DNA of 11,042 nt from Candidatus Methylomirabilales bacterium (GTDB lineage: Bacteria > Methylomirabilota > Methylomirabilia > Methylomirabilales > CSP1-5): NCBI GenBank assembly GCA_046758505.1, contig JBHIAH010000084.1, forward strand, positions 1-11,042, given 5' to 3'. Both the position numbers and the translations under genes were made by a program. Each line of letters starts with the position of its first letter. The stretch's first letter is position 1. Shown piece after piece: positions 1 to 7,722 of this stretch. Under the pieces are notes generated by a model that was not told where the DNA came from, did no database searches, and saw only the letters and a program-made list of their open reading frames with translations.

Positions 1-97
1 GATAACACCTGATGTCCTCGTCACCCCGCAAAGCCATATCCCAATAGACGCAATAAGTTCCCCCCTCACATTGATCCAGGTATCTGCACGGCTTCAT
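1..97 (-). CDS. Cys-rich hypothetical protein, N-terminal part only (truncated by window edge); not in the ORF track
   Basis: ATG at 97-95, preceded by SD-like GAGGGG (109-104) 6 nt upstream. Open to the window edge: MKPCRYLDQCEGGTYCVYWDMALRGDEDIRCY, with 4 Cys in 32 aa. Lies downstream of the predicted sigma54 promoter. Confidence 0.6.
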   Translation of the reverse strand, partial: MKPCRYLDQCEGGTYCVYWDMALRGDEDIRCY

Positions 98-102
98 TCC
101 TT

Positions 103-222
103 TCCCCTCGTCCGATATCCTACGCCTCGCGGACGGGGAGAGCCCCTGGCCTGCCAGTTCTTCCCGGCAGGAAGGGAGGTCAGCATGGCGGCTTAACACC
201 CTTCTAACGGGGCTCCCCCCGC
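103..222 (-). ncRNA. candidate structured cis-regulatory leader RNA (three-way junction plus alternative SD-sequestering hairpin), family not recognised
   Basis: Paired by eye. P1 GCGGGGGGAGCCCC (222-209) pairs with GGGGCUCUCCCCGU (146-133). P2 is GAAGGG/CCCUUC with inner GUUAAGC/GCUGAC (204-171). P3 is CUGCCGG-GAAGAA-CUGGCAG (170-151). The alternative helix is UCCCCGUCCG (139-130) with CGGACGAGGGGA (114-103). Non-Watson-Crick pairs in P1, P2 and P3 are G-U on the minus strand but A-C mismatches on the plus strand. Confidence 0.5.
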
Positions 223-297
223 TACTTTCGACTCAATAAATTCGGTTTCCCCCAGGTCCTTGATCTCAGACATCAGGGCCCGCGGACCTGACACCAC
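193..297 (-). CDS. putative 34-aa leader peptide / small ORF
   Basis: SD AGGAG (307-303), tandem GTG GTG at 297/294, in-frame ATG at 273, TAA at 195-193. Translation MVSGPRALMSEIKDLGETEFIESKVAGGAPLEGC. Begins about 15 nt after the predicted sigma54 start site. Confidence 0.4.
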   Translation of the reverse strand: MVSGPRALMSEIKDLGETEFIESKVAGGAPLEGC

Positions 298-323
298 GGA
301 TACTCCTGCTGAGAATACCAAAC

Positions 324-338
324 GCAATTTCCGGGCCA
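324..338 (-). promoter_or_regulatory. sigma54 (-24/-12) promoter
   Basis: Minus strand TGGCCCGGAAATTGC versus consensus TGGCAC-N5-TTGC, with exact GG-N10-GC spacing. Intergenic, next to a sigma54 activator gene, with enhancer-like palindromes upstream. Predicted start near 312. Confidence 0.8.
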
Positions 339-466
339 TCGGTTGGCTAAAACAAACAACACCTGCCCGCCTGGGCGCCCGGCGCGGTCATGAGAAGCAA
401 AACACCGTTTCCACAAGGAGTTGCGAGGCAGGGACGCAGAGTGATTCAGCCTCGGATAGGGGGTGG

Positions 467-496
467 GGTTGTTCGGAGGGAAAAACTAGAACAACC
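467..496. repeat. inverted repeat GGTTGTTC-N14-GAACAACC
   Basis: Perfect 8-bp arms at 467-474 and 489-496. They share the TGTT/AACA half-site core of the neighbouring enhancer-like sites but with longer spacing. Confidence 0.45.
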
Positions 497-508
497 AGAG
501 GTGCACTT

Positions 509-526
509 TGTTTATCGATTGAAACA
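509..526. promoter_or_regulatory. putative upstream activator sequence 1 for a sigma54 enhancer-binding protein
   Basis: TGTTTATCGATTGAAACA (TGT-N12-ACA, extended arms TTTGTTT/AAACAAA), about 170-190 bp upstream of the -24 box. Confidence 0.6.
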
Positions 527-541
527 AAAGGTCTGTCCGTC

Positions 542-559
542 TGTTCCGATTGGGGAACA
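542..559. promoter_or_regulatory. putative upstream activator sequence 2
   Basis: TGTTCCGATTGGGGAACA (TGTTCC-N6-GGAACA). Same 18-bp geometry as site 1 and offset by 33 bp, about 3 helical turns. Confidence 0.6.
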
Positions 560-572
560 TCTACCCCGATTA

Positions 573-2018
573 TCACGCTTTGGCGATATGGTACCGCTTC
601 ATCTTCCGCCAAAGGGTGGTTCTCCCGACCCCTAACGCCTTGGCGGCGTTCGCCACGTTGCCTTGGCACAACACGAGCTTCCTGATGATCTCCTCCCTCT
701 CCTTCTCCTCCATGATTTTTTCCAGCGGCTTCCGAAGCCACTCCTCGCCCCTTTTCCCAATCCAAGGAGGGAGGGACTCGGGCGAGACCGTATCGCCGGC
801 TGTCCGTGTGAGGGCGAACTCGAGGGCATTTTCCAGCTCCCGGACGTTGCCTGGCCAGTCGTAGTCTAGCAGGAGCTCCACGGCTTCTGGCAAGACCTTT
901 AATGCCTTCCGTTCGAGCTTGGCGGCCAACTTTTCCAGGATATGGTTGACGAGCAGGGGGATATCTTCTCTCCGCTCCCTCAGAGGCGAGGCGACGATGG
1001 GAACCACATTCAGGCGGTAGAAGAGGTCCTCCCTGAACTTCCCCTCCTGTACGGCTGCTTGGAGGTTCCGGTTGCTGGCGGCAATGACCCGGACGTCAAC
1101 CTTGACCGTCCGCGTCCCCCCTACCCTTTCGAATTCCCGGTCCTGAAGCACCCGCAGCAGCTTTACCTGGGTAGAGGGGCTCATCTCTCCGACCTCATCC
1201 AGGAAGATCGTCCCCCTGTCGGCCAACTCGAATCTTCCCGGTTTATCTCTAATGGCCCCGGTAAAGGCCCCCCTGACGTGTCCGAACAGCTCGCTTTCCA
1301 AGAGATTCTCAGAGAGCGTCGCGCAGCTCACATTCATAAAACGGCCGCCAGCCCGGCGACTCAACGCATGAATGGTAGAGGCGATGAGCGCCTTACCGGT
1401 CCCGCTCTCCCCCTGTATCAAGACGGTTACGTCACTTTTGGCCACCGCCTGGACGAGGTCGAAAATCTCTCGCATCCTTGGGCTTCTGCCGATGATGTCC
1501 CCAAGCCTTCCTGGTCTCTTGTGCAGGAGAGTTCGTAAGCTGTGCTCCTTCCTCGCGATCTCCTCTTCGCTCCGCTGGAGCGCATGGAAAAGACGAAGGA
1601 CAGGGCGGATATCCCGGATGGAATGTATGACCCCAATCTTCTCCCCCGCCTCGTTCTTGAGAAGGGAGGTACACATGGAGACCGGCAGTCGCCCACCCAC
1701 CCGGCTCTCCAGGGCGACGTTGAAGTGGACAGCAGTCTCCCCCCGGTCCCAGACCGCTCTGAAGGGACACCGGGTGGAACAGATCTCGCCCCCGATCACC
1801 TCCTCACATCGCTTCCCGATGGCCTCTGCCTCCAGGATCCCGGTCATGGCCTCGGCGGCGACGTTCATGCTCATGATCCTCTTATCGGCATCGACCGTGA
1901 TGATCGCGTCGGACATGCTCCTGAGGACGTCGGCCACGTTGAACGGCCACCTCTTGGGCCGGCACACGGATCCTTCTCCCCCTCGGCCCCGCTCGGATTG
2001 CCAGCCCAAATTCTTCAT
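573..2018 (-). CDS. sigma54-dependent transcriptional activator (PAS + AAA+ + Fis-type HTH)
   Basis: PAS start [12 protein letters not shown]...[10 protein letters not shown]; Walker [23 protein letters not shown]; Walker [57 protein letters not shown] downstream GTG at 1967 is an alternative start. Confidence 0.97.
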
Positions 2019-2535: not shown

Positions 2536-2895
2536 CTACGAATGTTCCTCCACCAGTTCCTTCAAGGCTACGGCGTTGTTATGGTCCTCGTCCCGGGCGG
2601 CGTAGAGGAGTGTAACCGTTCCGTGCCGAGCGTGCCCGGCCAGTTCTTTCAACTCCTCCGTCTTTCGCCCGAGCTCCTGGCGATACCGCCGTTTGAACTC
2701 CTCCCATTTCCGCGGGTCGTGGCCGAACCACCGTCGGAGGGCATCGCTCGGGGCGAGGTCCTTTTGCCACTTGTCGATCCGGGCTTTTTCCTTCGCTAGG
2801 CCGCGAGGCCACAGCCGATCCACCAGCACCCGGAAACCATCCGAGGGATCGGGCGGCTCATACACCCTCTTGATCCGGATGATGTCTTCTCCCAC
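2536..2895 (-). CDS. yeaO: DUF488 family protein (YeaO-like)
   Basis: Family signature IKRVYE...DGFRVLVDRLWPRG...W.KDLAPS..LRRWFGHDP..WEEF..RY..EL...VTLLYAARD...NNAVAL. GTG start. Confidence 0.92.
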   Translation of the reverse strand: MGEDIIRIKRVYEPPDPSDGFRVLVDRLWPRGLAKEKARIDKWQKDLAPSDALRRWFGHDPRKWEEFKRRYRQELGRKTEELKELAGHARHGTVTLLYAARDEDHNNAVALKELVEEHS

Positions 2896-2973
2896 TCTTC
2901 AAGCCTCTAGACCCTCTGAGGTGCCCCTCCTGTTGCCGCGGGCACGAAATTGATACCCAGAGGAGCCCCCTCC

Positions 2974-3786
2974 TCAGCAGGCCTCGCGGAAGGGAACCTC
3001 GGCTACGTCGTAAAAGCTTCCAAAGGCTGCGGAATCGTGGATCGGCATCCGGTATTGCCGCAGAAGGGCGTTTAAGGCGTGATGCGCGTAAGAGAGCGCG
3101 TTGTCCAGACCGCGGATCGCGGTGGCCTCGCCCATGTCCGGATCGGCCCGAGCGAGAGCATCCTCGGCTTTTTTCAGATGTTCCCGCCCCTCCGCCGAGC
3201 GCGAGCGCTCGATCTCGTGTGCGAGGGCGGCGAGGTATCGATCGACCTGCCTGTAGGCTCGCTGAAAATCCCGCACAGTGGCCGACGGACCCCGCCACGC
3301 CCCGTAGTACAGGCGATCGTGGGCTTCCATAAGATGGGCAAAGGGCAGGCCACGGTAGGGCGGACCTGGCGGCGCCTCCAGCTCCTCAGCCCGCCGGTGA
3401 CACGCCTCAATGTTCTCCAAATGCTGCTCACGCATCTCGATGAGAAAGGCCCGCGTCTCGGGGTCCAGGTCCTTCGCCAGCAGGGCGTCGATCCGCCTGG
3501 CAACCCATGCCTGCCCCCGAGCCAACAGACTCACCCGCTCCCCTTCGGTTGCCACGACCATCACCTTCTCGGCAAAACCCCCGGTGCGTTCCGATGGCCT
3601 CCCGCCGTATCGCAGAATCGCCTTTCTGAGGCCGCCGCACGCCCACCCTTCGTCCTCGGCAAACTTCTTGAGTTCCCCTTCCGTGAATCCCCGCGCCTCC
3701 GACGTAGCCAGCCGCATCGCCACCTCGACCCCGGCGCGCTCGCACTCCAAAAGCTCGTTCAGCCCATCGATGATCTCCCGCACCAT
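2974..3786 (-). CDS. ferritin-like DUF6306-type domain fused to an unrecognised ~130-aa helical C-terminal domain (270 aa)
   Basis: Pattern LNELLECERAG...DEGWAC..L...I...GG.PS..TG.F..K......ER..LL.RGQAWV.RRI..LL...L.EM...H..NI, recalled as DUF6306. Start moved to ATG 3786, which has a GGAGG SD upstream, rather than the track's GTG 3804. Confidence 0.75.
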   Translation of the reverse strand: MVREIIDGLNELLECERAGVEVAMRLATSEARGFTEGELKKFAEDEGWACGGLRKAILRYGGRPSERTGGFAEKVMVVATEGERVSLLARGQAWVARRIDALLAKDLDPETRAFLIEMREQHLENIEACHRRAEELEAPPGPPYRGLPFAHLMEAHDRLYYGAWRGPSATVRDFQRAYRQVDRYLAALAHEIERSRSAEGREHLKKAEDALARADPDMGEATAIRGLDNALSYAHHALNALLRQYRMPIHDSAAFGSFYDVAEVPFREAC

Positions 3787-4040
3787 CGCCAACCTCCCGG
3801 GCACCGGCCAATGCCCCCACCGCTTGCTACTTCGCGTACCCCACCTCGGTTTCCTTTCGTCATCCAGGCTCCTCCTCTCCTTGCTTATTCCTCAACTCGG
3901 ATCTCGTTTACGTCCTTGATCTTCTCTGACCTTCAGGGACCACGATACGCCGCCTGCGTCCCATCTGCGGATTTCTATCCTCGGGGATTACATAGATGTC
4001 AAAGTTTAGGGTCGCAATGCCCGAACCGGCCCGCGACCGG

Positions 4041-4952
4041 CTACCAGCATCCGCCCGTGCAGTGCCCGATGTGCCAAACGGGGCAGGTGACCCCGCATCG
4101 GAGCTGCCCCCTCGACATCAGTTCCCGATACCGCTGCCAGGCCCGGTCCACCTTGGGATCTTCCCCTGAACCCGTTTGGTTGCCTTGTCGCAGCCAATCC
4201 GTCGTGGGTGATCCTCGCCTCGAAGCGCGGAGGCAGATAAGGCAACGGAAGTTATTGAACACCTGCCGGGACAGGGGACGGAGCTTTTCACACTGGGCTG
4301 GGGTCTCCCCCAGCATCTGCGCTGGGTTCACCAGATCGCGTACCGCGGCCAGCTCGGCCCCGTATTCGCCAGACCACTCCCCAATCATGAGTGGCGTCAC
4401 CTCCAGATGGAACTGAAACGCATAGGCGATTCCCCCAAAGCGAAACGCCTGGTTCCGACATGCTTGAGAACTTGCTAGCTGGACCGCTCCAATGGGAGGA
4501 TGAAACGAATCCCCATGCCATTGGAAGACCGTAAATCTCTCCGGCAGGCCGGCGAGGAGGGGGTCGCGCTGCGCCATCTGGTCGAGGGTGATAGGATGCC
4601 AGCCGATCTCCTTTCCATCGTTCCGCATGACGAGGCCGCCCACCGCCTTCGCCAAAAGCTGCCCACCCAAACAAATCCCGAGAAAGGGAACGTCCTCGCA
4701 AAGTGCCTGACGGATGAACCGGTCCTCCATCTTCAAGAAGGGATAAGCCCCCTCTTCATACACGTTCATCGGCCCACCCAGGCTGATCACCCCTTGGTAT
4801 TGGTGAGGCGGAGGAAGCGGATCCCCCCGGTGGAGTGCCACGACCTCGATGGCAATGCCCTCGTCCCGACAGAACTCCTTCCAGACCCCTAAGCCCTCAC
4901 AATCCACATGCTTAATCACCAGGATCGTCATCCGTTTGTTCTTTGAGTTCAT
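4041..4952 (-). CDS. class I glutamine amidotransferase-like protein (stand-alone GMP-synthase/gamma-glutamyl hydrolase type), copy B, with Cys-rich C-terminal extension
   Basis: GGPMNVYEE, nucleophile motif GICLGGQL, WHGD and QFHLE, so the Cys-His-Glu triad is intact. ATG 4952 overlaps the upstream stop as ATGA. Alternative starts are 4961 and 4931. Confidence 0.92.
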   Translation of the reverse strand: MNSKNKRMTILVIKHVDCEGLGVWKEFCRDEGIAIEVVALHRGDPLPPPHQYQGVISLGGPMNVYEEGAYPFLKMEDRFIRQALCEDVPFLGICLGGQLLAKAVGGLVMRNDGKEIGWHPITLDQMAQRDPLLAGLPERFTVFQWHGDSFHPPIGAVQLASSQACRNQAFRFGGIAYAFQFHLEVTPLMIGEWSGEYGAELAAVRDLVNPAQMLGETPAQCEKLRPLSRQVFNNFRCLICLRASRRGSPTTDWLRQGNQTGSGEDPKVDRAWQRYRELMSRGQLRCGVTCPVWHIGHCTGGCW

Positions 4953-5698
4953 GCGGTCCATGAAGCTTTCTCTTTCCCCCGCCGCTGGCGTGCGGCCGCG
5001 CACCGGCGGACAAGACTGAGAAAATTCCACAACAGCTGCCGAGATTCGGGACGAAGCCTTTCACACAGAGCCGGGACCTCCGCCAGTATACGAGCGGGTT
5101 TCATAGGATCGTCCGGCTCGACCAGCTCGTATTCGCGCACCCACTGTCCGATCATATTCGGGGTCACCTCGAGATGGAACTGAAGGGCGTACGCGATCCC
5201 CCGCAGACGAAATGCCTGGTCTTCACAAAGCGTAGAACTGGCCAGAGGGACCGCCTGGATAGGGGGACGAAAGGTATCCGTGTGCCATTGAAAAACGGTG
5301 AAGCTCTCCGGCAGGCCAGCCAGGAGATGGTCGCGCTCTCCCATCTCGTTGAGCGTGACTCGATGCCAGCCGATCTCCTGCGCGGCATTGAGGATCACGA
5401 GGCCCCCCGCGGCCTTTGCCAGTAACTGTCCCCCCAGACAGATGCCAAGGAAGGGAACGCCCTCAGCGAGGACCTGACGGATGAACTGATCTTCCGTCTT
5501 TAAGAAGGGATACGCGTCCTCCTCATACACGTTCATCGGCCCACCCAGGCTAATCACCCCCTGGAACTCGAGAGGCGAGGGGAGTGGATCCCCCCGGTGA
5601 AGCGACACGACCTCGACGCCCACACCCTTCTGCCGGCAGAAGTCCTCCCAGATCCCCAACCCTTCGCAATCAACATGTTTGATGACGACGATCGTCAT
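4949..5698 (-). CDS. class I glutamine amidotransferase-like protein, copy A (249 aa)
   Basis: GGPMNVYEE, GICLGGQL, WHTD, QFHLE. The start is placed at ATG 5698 (MTIVVIKH), which makes an ATGA overlap with the upstream gene and aligns with the paralog. Confidence 0.93.
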   Translation of the reverse strand: MTIVVIKHVDCEGLGIWEDFCRQKGVGVEVVSLHRGDPLPSPLEFQGVISLGGPMNVYEEDAYPFLKTEDQFIRQVLAEGVPFLGICLGGQLLAKAAGGLVILNAAQEIGWHRVTLNEMGERDHLLAGLPESFTVFQWHTDTFRPPIQAVPLASSTLCEDQAFRLRGIAYALQFHLEVTPNMIGQWVREYELVEPDDPMKPARILAEVPALCERLRPESRQLLWNFLSLVRRCAAARQRRGKEKASWTA

Positions 5699-7722
5699 GC
5701 GTCGTCCCCGCTCCCGCGTTTCGCGGAGTGCGTTGCGTCCAGGGCCTCGACGACCAGCTCCGCCAGGTCCTTGACGTGCAGCGACCGGTCCAGGTCCTTG
5801 GCCTTGACGGCATCCTCCAGCATGTGCAGGCAGTAGGGACAGGCCGTTGCCACCACCTGGGCCTTCGTAGCCCGAGCCTCCTCGAGGCGGAGATGGTTGG
5901 TCTTCTTGTCCGAGGTAAACTCCATCCACATGTGCCCGCCCCCTCCCCCGCAGCACAACCCCTGCTCCCGGAAGCTCGCCATCTCCAAAGGCTTCCGTCC
6001 GGAAACCGATGCCAGAACGTCCCTCGGTTGATCATAAATCCCGTTGTAGCGCCCGAGGTAGCAGGAGTCGTGGTAGGCGATGATCGCTTCGAGATCTGCC
6101 TTCAGGGGAAGTTTTCCCTGCCGAATCAGGTCAGCCAAGAACTCGCTATGATGTTTCACGACATACCGACCGCCGAACTGGGGATATTCGTTCTTGAGCG
6201 TGTTAAAGCAATGGGCGCAGGACGTAATGATCTGGCCAAACCGGTATCGTTTGAATGTTTCGAGGTTCGCGCTTGCCAACTCCTGGAAGAGGAATTCCTC
6301 GCCCAGGCGCCTGGCTTGGTCCCCCGTGCATCGTTCTTCGTTCCCCAGGATGGCGAAATCAACGTCTGCATGTTGAAGGACCTTGACTAACGCCCTCGCG
6401 ATCCGCTGGGCGCGGGGATCGTAGGCAGCGAAGCACCCGGTCCAGAAGAGGACGTCGGTCCCGCCGGCCTCCCGCATCGTCTTGACGCCGAGGCCCTCGG
6501 CCCACCGCCCCCGCTCATCCTGGGGCAATCCCCACGGGTTCGCGCTTCCGGCAATATTCATCAGGGTGGTTCTGGCGCTCGCATCGTACACGTTCCCCTC
6601 GGCCACCAGGGACCGCCGCATCCCGACGATGAGCTCCACGTGGTCGATGAAGACGGGACAGATTTCTGCACAGGCCCGGCACGTGGTACAGGCCCATAGC
6701 TCATCGCTGGAGATGACTGCGCCGGGGAGCCGCTCCTTGCCGTCGCGGGTGCGACGGTCGTCCAGACGCCTGCACAGTTTTTGGACAACGCCCATCGGCG
6801 TGAGGGGAGTTCCGGTCCGAAACGCGGGACAGATGTTTTGGCAGCGTTCACAGCGGGTGCATGCGTGCACCGCGACGCGCTGTCGCCAGCTGAGATCAGG
6901 AATGGCCTCCAACCCGACCCTGCCCGTCTCCTCGACCTCTTGAACGCTGACCAGGGGAAGGGCACCTTTTGGCGAGAAAGAGGCAAGAAAGATGTTCGCC
7001 GGCGAGGTGAAGATGTGTGACAGCTTTGTGTAGGGTAAGAGAGCGATGAAGGCCAAGGCCAGAAAGGCATGGACCCACCAGACGAGCAGGTGGCCCTGAA
7101 AAAGAATTACTCCGTGAAGACCCAAAGCATCGAAAAGCTCCGCGAGAGCGTAGCCAATAAAGGACCACCGCTCCCAGGCAGGGAACCCAGAGAATGCGAT
7201 CCTGAACCCCTCGAGGAGGAATCCCGAACCACCGATAGCAAAGAGGAGAGCCAGGAGACCAAAGTCCTCCCGTGCCCCGCGAACCCGCTCGTGCCGGACC
7301 CACCATCTTCGGTAGGCCGCCATGGCGAGGCCAGTCATGAAGAGGAGCCCGAAGAAATCGAGGAAAAACGAGATAGCGAGATAGGAGGGTCCGCGGTAGA
7401 TACCGAGCTTGAGATGGTGCTCGAGGGCCACAATGACTGTCCCGATGAACAGGACGACGAAGCCCCACAACATGAACTGGTGCATCAGGAAGGCAAACGG
7501 GTCACGGCGGAGCCTCTTCAGGTTAACCCCATACTCAAAAAAGCGCCTGAGACGATGGGCAAAGGCACCCGGGATCTTTTCCGGTCGTCCGGCCCGATAA
7601 AGGGTGATCCGCTTAAAGACCCCATAGCTGAAGATCAGCGTCGCCAGCGCGGAGACGATGTAAAAGACGATGCGCAGGGTTGGCACGATGTTCCCGAAGA
7701 TCTCGCGCGTCGGCTCAACCAT
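5695..7722 (-). CDS. membrane-bound Fe-S oxidoreductase (NarI-like membrane domain, 2x[4Fe-4S], two CCG domains); FadF / ETF:(methyl)menaquinone oxidoreductase-like, 675 aa
   Basis: Hydrophobic N-terminal helices containing His; CTRCERCQNICP and CTTCRACAEICP; CCG-domain motifs GCF, ERCTGD, SCAHC, HDSCYLGR, CCGGGGG, ACPYC. ATG 7722 has an AAGGAG SD and lies directly after etfA. Confidence 0.92.
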   Translation of the reverse strand: MVEPTREIFGNIVPTLRIVFYIVSALATLIFSYGVFKRITLYRAGRPEKIPGAFAHRLRRFFEYGVNLKRLRRDPFAFLMHQFMLWGFVVLFIGTVIVALEHHLKLGIYRGPSYLAISFFLDFFGLLFMTGLAMAAYRRWWVRHERVRGAREDFGLLALLFAIGGSGFLLEGFRIAFSGFPAWERWSFIGYALAELFDALGLHGVILFQGHLLVWWVHAFLALAFIALLPYTKLSHIFTSPANIFLASFSPKGALPLVSVQEVEETGRVGLEAIPDLSWRQRVAVHACTRCERCQNICPAFRTGTPLTPMGVVQKLCRRLDDRRTRDGKERLPGAVISSDELWACTTCRACAEICPVFIDHVELIVGMRRSLVAEGNVYDASARTTLMNIAGSANPWGLPQDERGRWAEGLGVKTMREAGGTDVLFWTGCFAAYDPRAQRIARALVKVLQHADVDFAILGNEERCTGDQARRLGEEFLFQELASANLETFKRYRFGQIITSCAHCFNTLKNEYPQFGGRYVVKHHSEFLADLIRQGKLPLKADLEAIIAYHDSCYLGRYNGIYDQPRDVLASVSGRKPLEMASFREQGLCCGGGGGHMWMEFTSDKKTNHLRLEEARATKAQVVATACPYCLHMLEDAVKAKDLDRSLHVKDLAELVVEALDATHSAKRGSGDDA

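Follow-up and report, generated by a model that had tools for sequence, protein, structure and literature searches.

The window analyzed here, a stretch of 11,042 nucleotides from a Candidatus Methylomirabilales bacterium, forms the start of contig C84 in genome G000 and carries on its minus strand, in order, an activator gene, a promoter motif, a leader and the beginning of ORF-X (Table 1). The original prediction viewed this leader as a candidate new translational RNA switch, in which a three-way junction is mutually exclusive with a hairpin that sequesters the Shine-Dalgarno (SD) sequence. The locus raises the question of whether the RNA is a switch for the gene that it precedes, or whether its conserved bases serve another purpose.

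A conserved three-way junction in the leader

The junction itself is borne out by folding. All 14 positions of P1 (222-209 with 146-133) pair, two of them as G-U pairs (222/133 and 216/139), and both enclosed hairpins (204-171 and 170-151) are present in the MFE and centroid folds. Nucleotides 222-133 fold with a free energy of −56.6 kcal/mol, far below the values for dinucleotide shuffles (z −4.7; 0 of 300 as low), and the opposite strand of the same region gives a z of −2.6. It had also been argued that wobble pairs reveal the transcribed strand. This is correct for the window copy, but not for the two homologues described below, whose reverse strands fold equally well or better (−52.6 vs −49.9; −56.1 vs −50.4). 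Folding leaves the strand of the homologues unfixed, and the predicted strand of the element rests on the promoter motif.

Table 1. Coordinates of the leader element and neighboring features in the window.
Feature	Position	Strand	Basis or remark
ORF-X, first 32 codons	1..97	-	ATG 97-95; runs off contig end
Frame from loop AUG, 30 codons, stop overlaps ORF-X start	94..186	-	length not conserved
Possible SD-sequestering hairpin (original prediction)	103..141	-	not above chance, not conserved
Conserved 90-nt three-way junction (element)	133..222	-	fold, z-score, homologues, pair counts
P1 3′ arm	133..146	-	fold, pair counts
P3 hairpin, sequence variable, three two-sided pair changes	151..170	-	pair counts
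Candidate antisense seed	169..189	-	21 nt complementary to SD + AUG at G000:C83:4945-4965
P2 hairpin, bulged stem, invariant 6-nt loop 190-185	171..204	-	loop accessibility, alignment
P1 5′ arm	209..222	-	fold, pair counts
sigma54-type -24/-12 promoter motif	323..339	-	TGGC-N8-TGC
PAS-domain sigma54 activator (bacterial enhancer-binding protein)	573..2018	-	Pfam PAS, Sigma54_activat, HTH_8

Homologous elements are present in genome G008 (L055:2246-2334) and in a metagenome locus (L027:1081-1169), such that 3 of the 10 leaders of this operon that were compared carry the junction and 7 lack it. Of the 16 metagenome loci, seven (L030-L036) share no more than the N-terminal domain with ORF-X and are preceded by unrelated DNA; these were omitted from the leader comparison, although three of them were still scanned. 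A covariance model built from the three sequences gave strong matches only in G000 and G008 among 66 genomes searched, and the same two genomes are the only ones of 251 with exact matches to the sequence pattern. The test for covariation in homologous leaders that had been suggested gives a positive outcome, with five two-sided pair changes among three related sequences. In the model-fitted alignment 96% of cells pair, compared with 53-61% in slid-alignment controls, and only 2 of 500 shuffles score as high; because three related sequences were fitted to the structure, these pairing and covariation statistics are overstated. The sequences of the junction strands vary across copies.

Neither the window (98-222) nor L027 yields an Rfam match, at E values of up to 10 for the window, and G008 yields only an 18-bit, chance-level match to a miRNA. 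To this extent the original prediction is right: the 5′ leader contains a real RNA element that is structured and conserved and matches no Rfam family.

There are two indirect signs of more members. The proteins P0028, P0055 and P0060 are called with N-termini that extend across the element, and a second contig with variants at 198-207 covers the element in all four DNA runs of one study. In these runs (X1-X4; window 88-240), a variant of the element lies on the contig of a second organism, and one contig joins the 5′ part of the element to the ORF start with a different sequence between them. No RNA run is listed among the sequencing runs that contain the region, an outcome that does not bear on expression. 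Other candidates were discarded. One-mismatch pattern matches in other genomes (8 + 13 loci) include none that fits the covariance model, weak model matches in G018 and G055 are partial GC-rich matches, 20-nt blast matches in G018, G022 and G035 lie inside a coding frame, and a second pattern match in G008 (C35) falls, in antisense orientation, in a coding frame. A blastn search of the leader against plasmids gave 10 short chance matches, and the viral contigs held neither a pattern match nor a relative of ORF-X.

The patchy presence and differing flanks of the element, together with a P1 that could be read as a terminal inverted repeat, might suggest the remnant of a mobile element, such as a MITE or an IS110 non-coding end, the latter of which it resembles. 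However, the element is single copy in each genome and always occupies the same leader, with no adjacent transposase, and no model match lies close to the lone IS110 gene of G000. A mobile origin is therefore largely refuted and hardly credible, and the idea of an IS110 bridge RNA was dropped given the lack of both an adjacent transposase and dispersed copies. Elsewhere in the genome, L053:1493-1890 (G000:C14) contains a truncated IS110 transposase beside another IS fragment, unrelated to the element.

The sigma54 activator gene lies directly upstream of the leader, and this synteny is kept in relatives. Seven of the 10 leaders tested, including those of all three element carriers, have the TGGC-N8-TGC motif, from which a transcription start near 312 is predicted. 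The leader spans ∼215 nt between this motif and the ORF-X start. Between the activator stop and the promoter (window ∼345-560, minus strand), short blocks are common to relatives and are probably activator and IHF sites. Within the leader, an SD-like motif accompanies a 34-codon frame (193-297, minus strand) that opens at GTG 297 and ends within P2; no conservation of this frame was seen in the homologues. No terminator-like site was found in window 1-700, so that no discrete sRNA end is evident. Farther upstream of the activator are DUF6306 and DUF488 genes (2536-3804, minus strand), and G018 and G040 have similar-looking genes close to their activator genes. An acyl-CoA dehydrogenase/ETF/FeS oxidoreductase cluster is followed by two tandem paralogs of class I glutamine amidotransferase (4041-5956, minus strand), the second of which carries a small Cys motif at its end.

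ORF-X is a protein of 220-240 amino acids in relatives. Neither Pfam nor NCBIfam has a family that matches it; 39 of 742 candidates proved to be homologues, and it was found in 5 of 251 genomes of the phylum. Fold and atlas searches returned nothing usable: with a predicted model of pLDDT 61, the best fold match has a Z of 5.6, and Foldseek gave no match at E 0.001. The protein (window 1-97, P0001-P0040, P0067-P0096) resembles a fusion of a Cys-rich N-terminal domain with a C-terminal beta-sheet/helix domain. The former also occurs alone, as small proteins on the unrelated phage-like contigs L030-L036, and the latter stands alone in G006, G008 and G018. In relatives, class III CoA-transferase genes come after ORF-X; in L023 these encode two subunits and are joined by a gene for a small Cys protein. 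The G000 assembly lacks the sigma54-type CoA-transferase genes, and hence we infer from synteny the operon downstream of the window leader and its role as a “replacement isoenzyme”.

The Shine-Dalgarno hairpin and the riboswitch reading

The competing hairpin of the original prediction can indeed be drawn (141-130 with 114-103, −16.6 kcal/mol alone), but its stability is at chance level: region 150-90 has a z of +0.18, and 163 of 300 shuffles fold as low. Two close low-energy states had been anticipated, but across four fragments the SD hairpin has a pairing probability of 0-0.08 and can be forced only at an expense of 3.7-10.2 kcal/mol. The proposed logic, with P1 as the ON state and the SD hairpin as the OFF state, fares no better. 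In the thermodynamic model of the full leader (312-70), the SD is predicted to pair with upstream sequence even when P1 is formed, and so is paired in both states. An overlap of sensor and expression platform had likewise been claimed, but sequence and spacing after P1 differ in all three loci, the distance from P1 to the AUG being ∼15 nt in G008 and ∼130 nt in L027, and no SD hairpin is shared. Because the sequence after P1 differs at each locus, there is no conserved expression platform.

A covarying, Rfam-negative three-way junction in the leader of metabolic genes would be in keeping with a new metabolite-sensing translational riboswitch, whose ligand would stabilize P1 and free the SD. 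Against this reading stand an SD hairpin that is at chance, disfavored by 4-10 kcal/mol and not conserved, junction strands that are variable, and a distribution that is very narrow (2 of 251 genomes). The conserved bases are, moreover, accounted for by a match to another transcript, described below. The hairpin loop and strand that hold the invariant nucleotides are complementary to the start region of this other mRNA and change along with it, which a ligand pocket would leave unexplained. The translational ON/OFF reading is thus not supported, and we regard it as very unlikely.

Complementarity to a paralogous CoA-transferase III operon

The clue to an alternative function was a weak blast match of the leader within its own genome (E 0.064), which falls on a CoA-transferase III gene of contig C83, at its SD and AUG. 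Window positions 189-169 are complementary to C83:4945-4965 over 21 nt, comprising 17 contiguous Watson-Crick pairs, one G-U pair and three more pairs. No other site in G000 is complementary to the element over such a length (17 nt Watson-Crick, 21 nt with G-U; the runner-up has 15 and 16), and the C83 site ranks first of 8317 candidate start regions (z −5.0). Five bases of the P2 loop, identical to the first five bases of the seed, are more than 90% unpaired in all three copies.

Match length must be judged with care, since anti-SD sequences tend to pair with start regions, a bias that counts against the finding. Watson-Crick matches of 17 nt to any of 8988 start regions were obtained with 3 of 2000 shuffles and with 22 of 2000 natural anti-SD 90-mers. 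With G-U pairs allowed, matches of 21 nt occurred in 5 of 150 natural controls and in 12 of 150 in a looser control. Length alone is therefore only moderately rare, and with G-U pairs it is unremarkable. The unlikely part is that the top match falls on one of only four CoA-transferase III genes in G000. Furthermore, the gene hit heads an operon paralogous to the one found downstream of this leader in relatives, with 46% identity for both CoA-transferase subunits and 39% for the small third gene. This widespread, resident operon (C83:4037-10657) includes an IclR regulator, the two CoA-transferase III subunits, a small Cys protein, a small protein and a benzoate-CoA-ligase-like enzyme.

The start region of rpoB (G000:C60:3860-3905) ranks second of the 8317; it pairs with the element over 13 nt and with the invariant 12-mer in its entirety. 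An antisense RNA with rpoB or other similar start regions as its main or additional target would explain this rank and the 12-13 nt pairing with the invariant block in both G000 and G008. Nevertheless, no covariation is seen: compared with the window element, the G008 element pairs less well with its own rpoB, and genomes that lack the element have a similar site. For want of covariation we rejected rpoB as the main target, and we give the idea as a whole very little weight.

The CoA-transferase site, in contrast, changes together with the element. The G008 element differs from that of the window at two seed positions (181-180). A complementary change, predicted beforehand, was found at the start of the orthologous target gene (C114:227-241), with which the G008 element forms a perfect 15-bp match; the two positions that distinguish the elements of the two genomes are also those that distinguish their targets. 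Both elements were compared with 28 orthologous start regions. The window element matches that of its own genome alone (21 nt, with the next at 11), and the G008 element matches its own and those of four near-identical congeners (15 nt Watson-Crick), one of which is G007, a genome on which no conclusion here rests. Cross pairs between G000 and G008 extend over 8 nt and are weaker by 9.4-13 kcal/mol. The G008 target site is the longest perfect match among 8 non-self blast matches, and the L027 element matches the G000 target over 16 nt, from which its host would be expected to have a start region like that of G000. In G006 the sigma54 operon is present and both target orthologue and element are absent, which counts for the antisense reading; G040 has both operons and no element, which counts against it, as does the absence of the element from 7 of 10 leaders. 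With three full sequences, and both partners present in only two genomes, these data represent one covariation event. The change in G008 also adds one pair within P2, and so could have been selected in cis.

The same complementarity could instead reflect a protein binding site, as a DNA operator or for an RNA-binding protein, or a relic inverted copy of the paralog start region, with no RNA-RNA pairing in either case. The homologues fold equally well on either strand, the reverse strand of the element reads as a copy of the target SD-AUG, and an IclR-family regulator adjoins both operon types. However, protein binding sites are usually degenerate, whereas the matches here are exact over 15-17 nt and genome-specific. 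A relic would neither follow the host target in two genomes nor keep P1 and P3 covarying. We consider a protein site or relic unlikely, although we take it more seriously than any of the other alternatives.

Translational control of ORF-X in cis, by an upstream frame that is kept occluded or by a switch that RNA triggers, with P2 hiding an SD-like strand and the loop AUG, is distinctly unlikely. Opening of P2, or binding of the paralog mRNA, would alter ORF-X translation. The stop of the loop-AUG frame overlaps the ORF-X start in two of three loci, and in P0028, P0055 and P0060 the frame is called fused in frame. A two-strand fold with the target RNA also switches the window leader, with P1 opening and the SD hairpin forming. 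On the other hand, the frames are 30, 21 and 7 codons long, and the folding program cannot represent pairing inside a closed P1. Nor do the AUG and the SD-like strand within the element speak for control in cis, as both are an automatic consequence of its being antisense to a start region that holds the palindrome CAUG.

A proposed mechanism and comparison with known RNAs

We propose that the element is probably a trans-acting antisense RNA, borne in the leader and independent of Hfq, through which induction of the sigma54 operon would bring about repression of the resident paralogous CoA-transferase operon. The proposal builds on the observed structure and its covariation, the place of the element behind a sigma54 motif, and the complementarity between cognate partners. 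The activator would fire the sigma54 promoter and the leader would be transcribed, folding into the stable junction closed by P1 that both folding and covariation indicate. The P2 loop would then present anti-AUG bases for nucleation on the start region of the resident CoA-transferase III mRNA, and pairing could proceed by strand invasion through the weak, bulged P2 stem. The complementarity found corresponds to a duplex of 15-21 bp covering the target SD and AUG which, if formed in the cell, would block ribosome loading and probably promote mRNA decay without Hfq. A search of five genomes for Hfq found it in none, and RNase III was found in both genomes searched. The acting form may be the whole mRNA or a processed RNA of ∼90 nt. 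The net effect would be that induction of the sigma54 operon lowers expression of the isoenzyme operon, which might keep mixed alpha/beta CoA-transferase dimers from forming or prevent competing use of CoA.

An extended version of this antisense mechanism can also be envisioned, in which the junction is a two-way device. It would silence the resident paralog operon with a seed re-tuned in each host, and binding of the target mRNA would open P1 and alter translation of the first gene, so that the isoenzyme operons gauge each other through their 5′ ends. Target-triggered opening of P1 is speculative, as the program cannot pair the target inside a closed P1, and we consider the device as a whole rather unlikely.

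The free-standing, Hfq-associated sRNAs MicF and MicC pair imperfectly with their targets; each is tied to one porin locus and lowers a related porin. The element resembles them as an RNA that is tied to one locus and would lower a related gene, but it sits in an mRNA leader. It shares with translational riboswitches a structured, multi-stem leader element upstream of metabolic genes, but is without a conserved expression platform or bistability, and its conserved bases can be explained by a target in trans.

A closer precedent is s-SodF of Streptomyces coelicolor. Its published description reports an RNA of ∼90 nt, shown experimentally to derive from an mRNA untranslated region (3′ UTR) and to end at a terminator, whose complementarity to the 5′ region of an isoenzyme mRNA is near-perfect over 16-19 nt (PMC3919588). 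According to the same description, the seed lies in a loop and the remainder in a weak stem, the high-GC host is without Hfq, and the outcome is inverse control of two enzymes with like function (PMC3919588). The element is similar in its size of ∼90 nt, its origin in a UTR, its loop seed and weak stem, its long complement to an isoenzyme mRNA and the lack of Hfq. Features of the s-SodF type found here include a complement to the ribosome binding site (21 nt in G000, 15 nt in G008), an accessible loop seed and seed-target covariation, the last as one two-base event in two genomes. Unlike s-SodF as described there, the element resides in a 5′ leader, forms a closed three-way junction, lacks a terminator-like site and is a prediction from sequence. 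It also covers the SD and AUG of a true paralog; the likeness is functional, and no sequence relationship is claimed. In our assessment the 5′-leader origin and the lack of a terminator-like site lower the probability of biogenesis in the manner of s-SodF, but not that of working in its manner.

Precedents for a 5′-leader origin are Vsr217 (PMC8265627) and rnTrpL (PMC6614838), which these reports describe as trans-acting sRNAs from 5′ UTRs of metabolic operons that base-pair with other metabolic mRNAs; rnTrpL is released by attenuation (PMC6614838). Like them, the element would be a metabolic-operon leader RNA that pairs in trans and is also relevant in cis. As described there, their targets are not paralogs of the host operon and neither has a three-way junction structure, unlike the element. 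In the reported remodelling of flagellin by TldR and guide RNAs, an accessory locus uses RNA to alter the host counterpart of a carried gene (bioRxiv 10.1101/2025.07.22.666180). That system, as described there, targets DNA through a TnpB-derived protein, of which none was recognised here (ORF-X model pLDDT 61). Among the literature matches listed there is no report of the junction motif, which large motif catalogues could hold in their supplements.

If the proposed mechanism is true, the element would regulate a predicted target at the post-transcriptional level in an uncultured Methylomirabilota/NC10 lineage, for which no such RNAs appear among the literature matches listed. The natural two-base swap between G000 and G008 provides a ready allele-specific contrast. 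The case also illustrates how an orphan “riboswitch-like” motif may be explained by matching its conserved loop against the start regions of the genome. Under the proposed mechanism, silencing of isoenzymes by UTR-borne RNAs would be extended to a 5′ leader that acts, without Hfq, on a true paralog.
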